Part shown: piece after piece, positions 33,595 to 36,500 of the stretch
How positions within the stretch are numbered: position 1 is the first letter of the stretch
Layout: each line of letters begins with the position of its first letter
From: an uncultured bacterium
GTDB taxonomy: Bacteria > Gemmatimonadota > Gemmatimonadetes > Gemmatimonadales > Gemmatimonadaceae
NCBI GenBank assembly: GCA_963978095.1
Contig: CAXBQP010000002.1
Location: 1 to 64,000 of the forward strand
Direction: 5' to 3'
Length of the DNA stretch: 64,000 bases
Program-made: the position numbers

Positions 33595-36500
33595 GTGGCC
33601 GCACCATCATGCACCTCGCCGATCTTGTGCGACTTTCCCGTGTAGTACAGGATGCGCTCAGTCGTCGTGGTCTTCCCGGCATCGATGTGGGCCATGATGC
33701 CGATATTGCGATAGTACTTCAGTTCGGTTTCGCGAGCCATCGTAATCGAAATCCCGTATTTGCGTCGTTCGCGGCAGACTGTCCCGTCGCGAGGTAGGGG
33801 TACTCGTCTTCACGCCTTCGGCCCAACAGCGCCCCCGAGCCTCCGGGAGCAAAAATGCGGCTGGACCAGTCACCCTGATCGCGCGCAACATGAGCATCGC
33901 TGCGACGGCAGGATTGGTATCCATCCGCTCTCGCCGGGTACATTCGCCACTGTTGCGCGAACGGGGACCCTCGGCGCGCCGGAAGTGGCAACGGCAATCG
34001 TGAGCAACAGCTCCCACGATTCCTTCCGACGTCGAATTGTCCTGCGTTGCTTTTCGGGAACCTCGGTGTCCGCACAGAGCGGAAACGTTCGGTAGACTGA
34101 TCCCACAATCCCCGCGCGTGCACGTACACCATCCGCACGTTGGCGAGCCCATAAGTCCCGGTACGCAGTTCACCGGTTTTGCTCAGGCGCGAGTCACTTT
34201 TTGCCAGAGCCTTGGTAAGATAGCGCGAGCGGCCCTTAAGTCAACCGCTGGGGGACCCCAGCCTTCCGGGATCCTCCGAACGGCTCAGGCCTCCTCTAAA
34301 TGAAACAGGGCGCCGCCCATCCGGACGGCGCCCCTTCTCCCCCCTTCCTGCGTCAGGCTTCGCTGACCGCCCCGCCCGACGCCTCGCTCCCCCAGGACAG
34401 CGAGCCGCTGGTCCCATCGCGGGCTGGAACCGCCCGCAACGTCGAGACCTCAAGGTCCACGGCGCGGAGCGCCACTTCGGAGTTGTACAGAATCTCTTCG
34501 ATGCGAGCGGGCGTCATGGCAATCTCAGTAAGGACAAAGGAAAACAGATGACGACTAGAGGTCGCCGGACTTCAGGATCGCACGAGCGACCGAGTCCAGG
34601 ACCGCCGTGGAGTCGTAGGCCTTCTGGTTGACCCGCTGGCGGATCTCCGCCAACCGCGCGGTGTTCGCGGCATCGCCCTTCGACATGGCGAGCCCCTCGG
34701 CCGAGAGGGTGACGGCATCGCGCGCGGGCGCACGAGTGGCCGCAACGGGAGACGCCACCGACGGCGCGCTCGGCTTGGCCGTTTCGCGGTTGACGGTGTT
34801 GGCGGCGAGCTTTGACGCTTGGGTGCCGATGTTTCCGATCTTCATTCGATGTTTCCTCCTGTACCAGCAATATCGACACGCGGCGTGAAAACTTTAGCGG
34901 CCGCTCAGCATGACGGTCCGATTGGCGCGCTAGTAACGGACTTCGAAACTTCTTGCATGATCCGCGCCAGCGCCACTGGAGGCGGCCATGACCCCGTCCA
35001 GGGGGAAGGCCGCACCGGCTCCGGGCGACGAAGCCAAAGCGACCGCAGCCTGTTCACGCACATTCGAGGCTCGGGCACGCGCGGCTCGCAACATCGCCGG
35101 TTGACGGCTGACCTGCGTCGTGGCGAGCGCGATCATATCCGCCACGGACCAGCTGGGTTGCTCCGCCGGCCCGCGATCCCCTCCGGTCCCCGTGACCGAC
35201 GAACCAGCCGACGCGCTGAGATCCGGACTGGCGTCCGAGAGGGTCGCAAGCATCACGAGCCCACCCCAACGCGCCCCGGGCGGCACCTGTCGCCGATATA
35301 TCTTCACTTCGTCAGCCGGAGGTAGGACCGGCTGGACGGGGCGCCGGGAGGGGCGACGGGATGAACACCAGGCTGTCCGCTCAGCGGGGACCGGGCCTGA
35401 TCCACCGCCTTGGCCGGCAAGGCCGTGTACGTGGAGGCAACAGCCTCGACCGCGTCAAGCGGGGCTTCACCGTTCGTCAAGCGTGCCTTCAGCTCGTCGA
35501 GTATGCGTTGGAGTTCCTTCCCGAAATCGCCGGGCAGCGGCTTGGCACTCGGCGATTCTTGCCGCAGCGCCTCGCGAAGTGCCGGATAGTTGACCGTCAG
35601 GTGATCCGTCACACGCGCACCGACACGTACGTCGAGCGATGAAACCCGAACAGCGGCCGATGGCGGAGCGGTCGGCTTCACGAGCCGAGGCTGCGGCCGC
35701 ACGTCGGCGTTCGCGGTTCGGATGAGAGTCATGGTGAAGGAATCCATGCCTGATATGTCGGCCCAATGCTTGCAAGACTTTAGGCATGCGGCGCAATCGG
35801 ACCGCCGGAAGGGGGGCACATACATTTAATGCACGAACTATGGGTCGACTGGTGGAGTCCCCAGGGTGCTCCCGGTGTGGAGGATCGGCGCCGGTCAGGG
35901 GGGAGCGATTCGGTTTGGGGGCGGAGTTCCAGCGCCGTGGCACGAATCGTGCGGAAACCCCTGTCGAGGCGGCAGCTTTGTCCGCCACCACCCGTTGAGG
36001 GATGCTCCTGCGATGCGTGTCACGAACTTCAGCATCAGCGATTCCGCCGTTCTCAATCTGAGTGCGCTCCGCGGACAGGTCGACGCGGCGCAGCAGCAGA
36101 TTTCGAGCGGCAAGCGCTTCACCGAGGCGTCGGCCGATCCGGCCGCCGCGCACGGCGTGATGCAGAATCAGAGCCAGTTACGGGCGGTCACCCAGTATCA
36201 ACGCAACGTCGGACTCGCGACATCACGGGCGACCCTGGAAGAGTCCGCCCTGAATCAGTTGGGAGACATTCTGACGCGTGCGCGGGAACTCGGCATCGCA
36301 CAGGCGACCGGAACCGCCAGCGCCAGCACCCGCAGTGCCGCCGGCACGGAGATCAGCCAGCTCCTGGCGCAGGCGGTGAACCTGGGCAACTCCAAGGATG
36401 GCGCCGACTATCTGTTCGGCGGCACCTCGTCCAGCACGGCACCCTACACCATCGATACCACCGGCGCCTCAGCGACTTTTGCCGTCTCCGGACAACCGAC

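Follow-up and report, generated by a model that had tools for sequence, protein, structure and literature searches.

In Escherichia coli, ribosomal protein (r-protein) L4 stimulates NusA-dependent termination via a pause hairpin and an upstream hairpin (PMC8632103 and PMC3616713, both in excerpt). In Bacillus subtilis, L20 and L10(L12)4 act through leader terminators (PMC1865079 and PMC10931766, in excerpt). The E. coli L4 and S7 sites are reported as narrowly distributed (PMC3616713, PMC10931766). For fusA-rpsG attenuation, the literature search gave only PMC2965389. Regulation of the str-S10-spc genes outside E. coli is largely open, and the element described here is an order-wide candidate in a little-studied phylum.

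Locus, promoter and transcript

In the window (the whole stretch of 64,000 nt that was analysed), the leader is encoded by the minus strand, with a flagellar gene cluster (FlgL, flagellin) on one side and fusA on the other. The features of the locus are the following.

34307..34334, minus strand: strong terminator-like hairpin (12 pairs and a T tail), ending the upstream gene and insulating the fusA promoter
34217..34244, minus strand: sigma70-type promoter (−35 at 34244-34239, −10 at 34222-34217)
34208..34211, minus strand: GGCU where the transcript is inferred to begin, a signature of the promoter class and outside the fold
31614..33740, minus strand: fusA, EF-G (TIGR00484 over cut-off)
30333..31535, minus strand: tuf, EF-Tu (TIGR00485 over cut-off)
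17388..30266, minus strand: S10 and spc genes through secY and two more genes (ORF chain, gaps <200 nt)

The promoter sequence TTGACT-16-TATCTT at 34244-34217 was the sole promoter-like match within 32500-35000 (shuffle mean 0.4). The same shape, followed by GGCT, was observed upstream of the element in 110 of 146 loci of the family Gemmatimonadaceae, which bears out the sigma70 promoter that a preliminary description had assigned to fusA. With the +1 placed at ~34211 from spacing rather than by mapping, the leader to the fusA start at 33740 is ~471 nt long. Rfam gave no match at the gathering score in the window, and the best hit over 33600-34600 had E = 4 (snoRNA and miRNA models), so the ~470-nt leader outside Rfam also stands as described. 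Look-alikes of the T-box, SRP and guanidine/glycine riboswitches found no Rfam support and were rejected.

GGCT lay 4-7 nt past the −10 box in 13 of the 57 promoter-like sites of the source genome, mostly at rrn (e.g., the rrn promoter on contig C17), tRNA and r-protein genes, with gene names partly read from translations. Because several r-protein promoters and those of rrn and tRNA genes carry GGCU as well, it was assigned to the promoter, and its role as an RNA pairing partner was rejected. Growth-controlled promoters of this lineage may have GGCT as a start-site signature, and the same spacing is seen in the E. coli S10 promoter.

S10, L3, L4, S8, and SecY were confirmed by profile, and the other S10 and spc names were recognised from translations. 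L4 (28273-29139) has a long Ala/Lys-rich C-terminal tail, and its match to the ‘sunset domain’ variant was sub-threshold (215 vs 385 bits). The rpsG gene lies ~40 kb upstream of fusA on the same contig (which runs to 74767) and strand as a separate unit, and the S13 gene is on another contig. The ~40 kb that part rpsG from fusA start with the flagellar genes (34300-64000, and on to 74767). The str operon is likewise split in many family members. Between the U tract and fusA, the 106 nt at 33846-33741 can form more hairpins, conserved within the genus only.

RNA contigs, all from one study and silent on strand, ends and level, covered the leader up to end points at 34151-34203, with no cover at 34220-34700. 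One mismatch-free contig from run X1 spanned 33681-34192. The earlier statement that contigs stop just inside the predicted start, and that one crosses the leader without mismatch, agrees with these positions. Contigs from runs X2-X4 broke near 33850-33913 with lower depth downstream, and the contig over the leader showed a higher depth figure than those past the terminator in 3 of the 4 RNA runs. Since strain variants branch at 33850-33913 and contig depth cannot rank parts, this break was not counted as evidence.

Core fold, terminator hairpin and module 1

The core (34040-33847) consists of two stacked helices, followed by an imperfect terminator hairpin and a U tract. In order, it comprises J1 (ACAA), P2, P3 with P4, a 3-nt linker, hairpin P5/P6 and the interrupted U tract. 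Module 1 precedes it. The parts of the fold are listed from 5′ to 3′.

34158..34176, minus strand: module 1 hairpin M1a, with loop CUGCG at 34168-34164 (covariation, 35 rows)
34047..34152, minus strand: module 1 body, with a near-invariant A-GGG, the covarying hairpin M1c, a GGG/CCC helix closing a variable arm, and an A-rich joiner (anchored parse of 68 distinct copies)
34042..34046, minus strand: CGCAG, proposed pseudoknot partner of the M1a loop (100% paired)
34032..34040, minus strand: J1, a single strand that opens with ACAA and precedes P2, retained in both families
33977..34031, minus strand: P2, stacked on P3, its base conserved and its tip variable (changes on both sides at 6 of 7 pairs)
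33932..33976, minus strand: P3 (2-3 nt bulge, invariant CCC loop) and the P4 hairpin, the latter specific to Gemmatimonadaceae
33857..33928, minus strand: terminator-like hairpin P5/P6 (four pairs change on both sides, 212 distinct copies)
33847..33856, minus strand: interrupted U tract, then a conserved GYUG (column counts)

In a 19-row MAFFT alignment, 12 of 38 core pairs changed on both sides and 97.2% of the cells were paired. Its score was reached by 0 of 500 shuffles, and slid controls gave 36-44%. A 100-row alignment raised the pairs changing on both sides to 19, a figure biased towards the model, to which that alignment was fitted. The fold placed at 33848-33982 in the preliminary description as module 2 keeps its covarying, attenuator-like character, but the core starts at 34040 rather than at 33982. 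J1 was ACAA-like in 88 of 116 sister-family copies (among the matches listed), and P4 was absent from the sister-family copies inspected.

The terminator hairpin was the most conserved part of the element. P5/P6 is built from 4 bp, an A mismatch, 3 bp, an AN bulge, 3 bp, an asymmetric loop with a conserved G, and a variable tip. Its stem had been called invariant, a claim overturned by the four pairs that change on both sides between lineages. A terminator UG/CA was replaced by GC/GC in 43 sister-family copies. In genus g11, a G-C and a C-G terminator pair switched jointly in 3 copies, which fixes the register of the AN bulge. The bulged A was present in 212 of 212 matched copies, as required by the search pattern behind them. 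The first unpaired base past P6 was G in 164 of 170 and 147 of 154 copies (311/324 together). A plain terminator has no need of the bulged A and the loop G, both of them unpaired. The A mismatch had turned into a pair in a few copies. On the question of a leader peptide, with leaders judged by reading, the AUG inside the terminator was lost in the sister family.

A GC-rich hairpin stands directly before the U tract and 5′ of the first gene, the arrangement of an intrinsic terminator or attenuator, though an imperfect one. The U tract held 5-7 U in its first 8 nt (130 family and 43 sister-family copies), and the hairpin energy had a median of −23 kcal/mol. Folding energy alone was not significant for the whole leader (z +0.79) or for module 2 (z −1.46), and a simple terminator scan of the window did not return this hairpin. 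The full transcript favoured the terminator by a median of 11 kcal/mol, which means that read-through has to come from kinetics or from the weakness of the U tract. The minimal form of the element is ~140 nt, and the shortest leaders have 76 nt from +1 to the core anchor.

In M1a, 4 of 6 pairs changed on both sides (35 rows), so the covarying hairpin of module 1 is upheld. The pseudoknot is another matter, as its five pairs showed 0 compensatory changes in these 35 rows. One wobble was seen, and in the wider set of distinct copies the fifth pair was broken in 5. One compact leader (L017, from a genome flagged as unpublished) has a CUGCG-loop hairpin and CGCAG before J1 without the module 1 body, an arrangement that weakly supports the pseudoknot.

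Module 1 was missing from ~50 of 138 distinct copies. The parse placed 64 of the 138 and left 59 with a promoter and no parse and 15 in neither class; 8 of the 59 are long leaders and probably parse misses. Placed on a quick 85-row EF-G tree, the presence of module 1 needed 11 changes, 4 of them forced by well-supported branches, with labels that include probable pattern misses (L007, L047, L069, L088) and a broken row (L026). Among the matches listed for its 3′ pattern (120, of which 94 lacked the hairpin by the parse, 2 of these being parse misses with a core behind), module 1 stood only in front of the core and directly abutted it in 26 of 26. The view of both modules as one obligatory RNA is not supported, as module 1 is optional and the sister family carries a different optional module. 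That module, unrelated to module 1, forms a long hairpin that includes a CACCUCU strand and lies 60-120 nt ahead of the terminator; it was present in 64 of the 116 copies listed (L415, L417, L419, L229-L233 and others).

Distribution in the order and second copies

BLAST detected the element in 111 of 151 family genomes, and the exact core pattern was present in 299 of 401 (reversed control, 1 match). Two genera largely missed the exact pattern (0/18 and 1/31), and the four fusA loci obtained from them, out of 5 genomes tried, all carried variants. In a set of 150 loci, 149 matched the pattern, and 136 of these showed fusA 61-268 nt downstream. The other 13 comprised 5 cut short with the fusA start visible, 2 too short, 4 chance matches in other phyla and 2 before rpsJ. 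The statement that fusA follows holds for these 136 loci, but some copies precede rpsJ. Some genomes occur in both locus sets. Genomes flagged as unpublished (G134, G007, G033, G034, G356, G471, G450, G521) enter the tallies, and one flagged locus (L023) is 1 of the 19 model rows; the conclusions are independent of them.

The covariance model matched 28 of 31 family, 30 of 71 sister-family and 1 of 2 third-family genomes, and none of 46 genomes of other orders and classes. It undercounts the sister family, as all 12 model-negative genomes checked, located via the EF-G protein, carried the element. The terminator was seen in all 43 sister- and third-family loci inspected, with the variant preceding fusA. 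A sister-family variant before fusA, as proposed earlier, is thus found in 43 of 43 loci, but its count by the model was too low. The sister-type pattern gave at least 120 matches, 116 before fusA, 3 with an incomplete locus and 1 by chance. Among the matches listed, 93 of 116 sister-family copies followed rpsG within 420 nt, and 40 of 116 had their own promoter.

Twenty-two fusA loci read from other orders were without the element, and viral contigs gave 0 matches. Homologs outside the phylum were rejected, as 4 non-Gemmatimonadota matches of 120 lacked the rest of the motif. Named records with the motif belonged to Gemmatimonadaceae and other Gemmatimonadales. From these sequence searches, the element appears to be limited to Gemmatimonadales in the genomes covered. 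The rpsG-fusA spacers of two other families of the phylum showed different GC-rich hairpins with U runs (L244, L249, L250, L253, L256, L260; L241, L243), which are possibly independent attenuators at the same site. We also observed a ~140-nt repeat with terminal inverted repeats in Longimicrobiales (L301, L308, L311, L372, L314), MITE- or REP-like and present twice in one chromosome.

Two pattern matches were found in 11 of 401 genomes. We checked 10 of these (not G120) together with G151 and G152, and 7 of the 12 carried two full copies, the first ahead of fusA and the second ahead of rpsJ. A promoter was seen for 6 of the 7 rpsJ copies; in G044 the contig ends too early, and this copy may be a misbinned contig. 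Four of the seven belong to genus g12, and the duplications may represent one event. The second matches in G302, G366, and G511 were due to chance and were set aside, and G079 and G070 have two fusA copies. G378 carried both copies on one contig, with a 36-kb insertion between tuf and rpsJ, which holds polysaccharide genes by their translations.

Since both the fusA and the rpsJ copies are kept, the element is read as a cis element serving the EF and S10 blocks, and EF-G autoregulation alone is argued against. The start of fusA lay ≤27 nt past the U tail in 27 of 43 sister-family loci, too close for a further promoter to fit between, so that fusA needs read-through. Sequence comparison supports an attenuator-like leader that acts in cis on EF-G, EF-Tu and the S10 block. 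The candidate cis regulator of these genes in the preliminary description is sustained by this short distance and by the cassette duplicated before rpsJ.

Mode of action and comparison with known leaders

In build, with an upstream hairpin set directly against a bulged terminator whose U tract is weak, the element comes closest to the E. coli S10 attenuator, and this favours feedback by an r-protein. We give a probability of about one half to the reading that the element is a transcription attenuator of fusA-tuf-S10-spc under negative feedback by a free r-protein encoded downstream, in the manner of the L4/NusA-dependent E. coli S10 leader. L4 would be the first guess for the ligand, by precedent. 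The covarying fold, hairpin and U tract sit between the promoter (or rpsG) and essential genes. RNA polymerase would pause at the U tract, and the terminator, deliberately imperfect, would mostly be read through. Excess protein might then bind the P2-P3 stack and/or the bulged terminator hairpin, and the bound protein, probably with NusA, would raise termination. In Gemmatimonadaceae, read-through may be helped by an alternative pairing, in which CC and the 5′ strand of P4 join the 5′ strand of the terminator. Module 1 could be an optional add-on, as a second binding site or a folding timer.

A universal antiterminator was not found across the order, and the candidate is confined to one family. 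Of 130 family copies parsed, 124 could be assessed for the P4-based pairing, and 103 of these formed 7-8 of its 8 pairs; as long as the 3′ arm is still lacking, its energy lay a median of 3.2 kcal/mol above that of the P3/P4 fold. It exceeded shuffles in 23% of the family copies and in 1 of 43 sister-family copies, and it was broken in g11. The purine/pyrimidine pattern that keeps this pairing is also expected from transitions in any stem. A J1 helix exceeded shuffles in the sister family (11.9 vs 8.6; 90 of 118 parsed), and equally so against the arm of the other family (11.5 vs 8.8), which indicates mostly pairing with the linker. It was rejected as an antiterminator, being not family-specific and not above shuffles in Gemmatimonadaceae.

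Mimicry of rRNA was searched for by sequence and simple descriptors, with three-dimensional mimicry beyond their reach. The best profile match to the genome's own rRNA had E = 0.27-0.92, and the best sense-strand score of the model in the rRNA loci was 7.6 bits. The descriptor scan gave a single rRNA match, which we take to be non-native in view of the 16S structure. A likeness to 23S domain V held only for the genus of the source genome, with other family rRNAs differing, and one to domain III (E = 0.92) did not follow the sister-family changes; both were discarded.

The same terminator could act with no dedicated ligand, as a leaky terminator or pause tuned by NusA, NusG and polymerase speed, with a fixed or growth-dependent read-through ratio. 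The interrupted U tract and the mismatch near the stem base suit this explanation, and in B. subtilis such interruptions, when distal, are a mark of Nus-dependent terminators (PMC8060035, in excerpt). Minimal sister-family copies, reduced to one hairpin and the terminator, and the lack of an rRNA mimic in our searches point the same way. We nevertheless consider a ligand-free terminator doubtful, because the stem base identities, bulged A, loop G and CCC loop are conserved far beyond the tip helices, and most copies retain P2, P3 and J1. Alternatively, the terminated leader could be a stable small RNA that works in trans, with the downstream genes incidental, which would explain why most family copies have their own promoter and terminator. 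The higher leader contig depth in 3 of 4 RNA runs could be cited for it, though contig depth cannot rank parts. A trans-acting product is highly improbable, given that only 40 of the 116 sister-family copies listed have their own promoter, that the element was never found away from fusA or rpsJ, and that its duplication followed the operon split.

Other explanations differ from r-protein feedback in the ligand. EF-G, EF-Tu or the upstream product S7 could be sensed in place of a downstream r-protein. Full copies kept before rpsJ without fusA speak against all three, as does the fact that no conserved sarcin-ricin-like or tRNA-like motif was recognised; for S7, the ~40 kb to a separate rpsG unit in the source genome has to be added, and we regard these ligands as quite unlikely. 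A riboswitch-type sensor, in which module 1 and/or the core binds a small molecule (GTP, ppGpp) and gates the terminator, gains from the riboswitch-like build of module 1 (invariant unpaired A-GGG and A-rich joiners), from its position abutting the core and only there in 26 of 26 of the matches listed, and from a promoter of the rrn/tRNA class. The absence of module 1 in ~50 of 138 copies, at least 4 changes on the tree, no other gene class behind it among the matches listed, an unrelated upstream module in the sister family and few unpaired bases common to both families make such a sensor rather improbable. Equally speculative is a two-input switch, in which an optional pseudoknotted module 1 aptamer (for a guanine nucleotide, ppGpp or a translation factor) would gate a protein-recognising terminator hairpin. 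If true, it would be the first such dual control of the EF-G, EF-Tu and S10-spc genes.

The RNA family is real and apparently undescribed. Searches with the lineage name and RNA motif terms found no description in the literature, with part of the search missing the form ‘Gemmatimonas’. The supplements of PMC7247131 contain neither the lineage nor fusA, and those of PMC11109978 and other surveys, outside this comparison, may bear on novelty. The Firmicutes S10 leader and the Peptostreptococcaceae rpsJ motif are likewise lineage-specific candidate leaders before rpsJ (PMC7247131, PMC1913097, PMC11109978, in excerpt). They were set apart by description, as they gave no Rfam match here and the Gemmatimonadales element lies mainly before fusA. 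The predicted streptococcal rpsG-fusA attenuator and the Pelagibacter rpsL motif share the str-operon position (PMC2965389, PMC2704228, in excerpt), whereas they belong to other phyla and gave no Rfam match, the two grounds on which they were set apart.

The element offers natural experiments: some copies have module 1 and others lack it, the terminators of two families are compensated, and fusA and rpsJ copies occur side by side in one genome. Together with the ~140-nt minimal form, these make the ligand directly testable in vitro.

The B. subtilis L20 (infC) and L10(L12)4 leaders are r-protein operon leaders with an intrinsic terminator, and the L20 leader also has stacked helices after conserved adenosines (PMC3849166, PMC1865079, in excerpt). 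Both differ by a covarying antiterminator and a clear rRNA mimic, neither of which was found across Gemmatimonadales, and L20 and L10 are not among the genes recognised in the fusA-tuf-S10-spc unit. Homology to hairpins HD-HE-HG of the E. coli S10 leader was not detected (5.9 bits, inside a coding region). That leader occurs in Gammaproteobacteria only, whereas the Gemmatimonadales element also covers EF-G, EF-Tu and spc and has no conserved hairpin over the start codon. The two are alike in standing before the S10 genes, in an upstream hairpin directly next to a terminator or pause hairpin that is bulged and has a U run, and in variable, dispensable 5′ hairpins (PMC3616713, PMC8632103, in excerpt). 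As in r-protein leaders in general, the element lies consistently 5′ of r-protein operon genes on the same strand, and its secondary structure is backed by covariation; mimicry of an rRNA site, common in such leaders and not required, was not seen. The element is best filed with the r-protein operon leaders, a known kind, and is most likely an r-protein-like attenuator.
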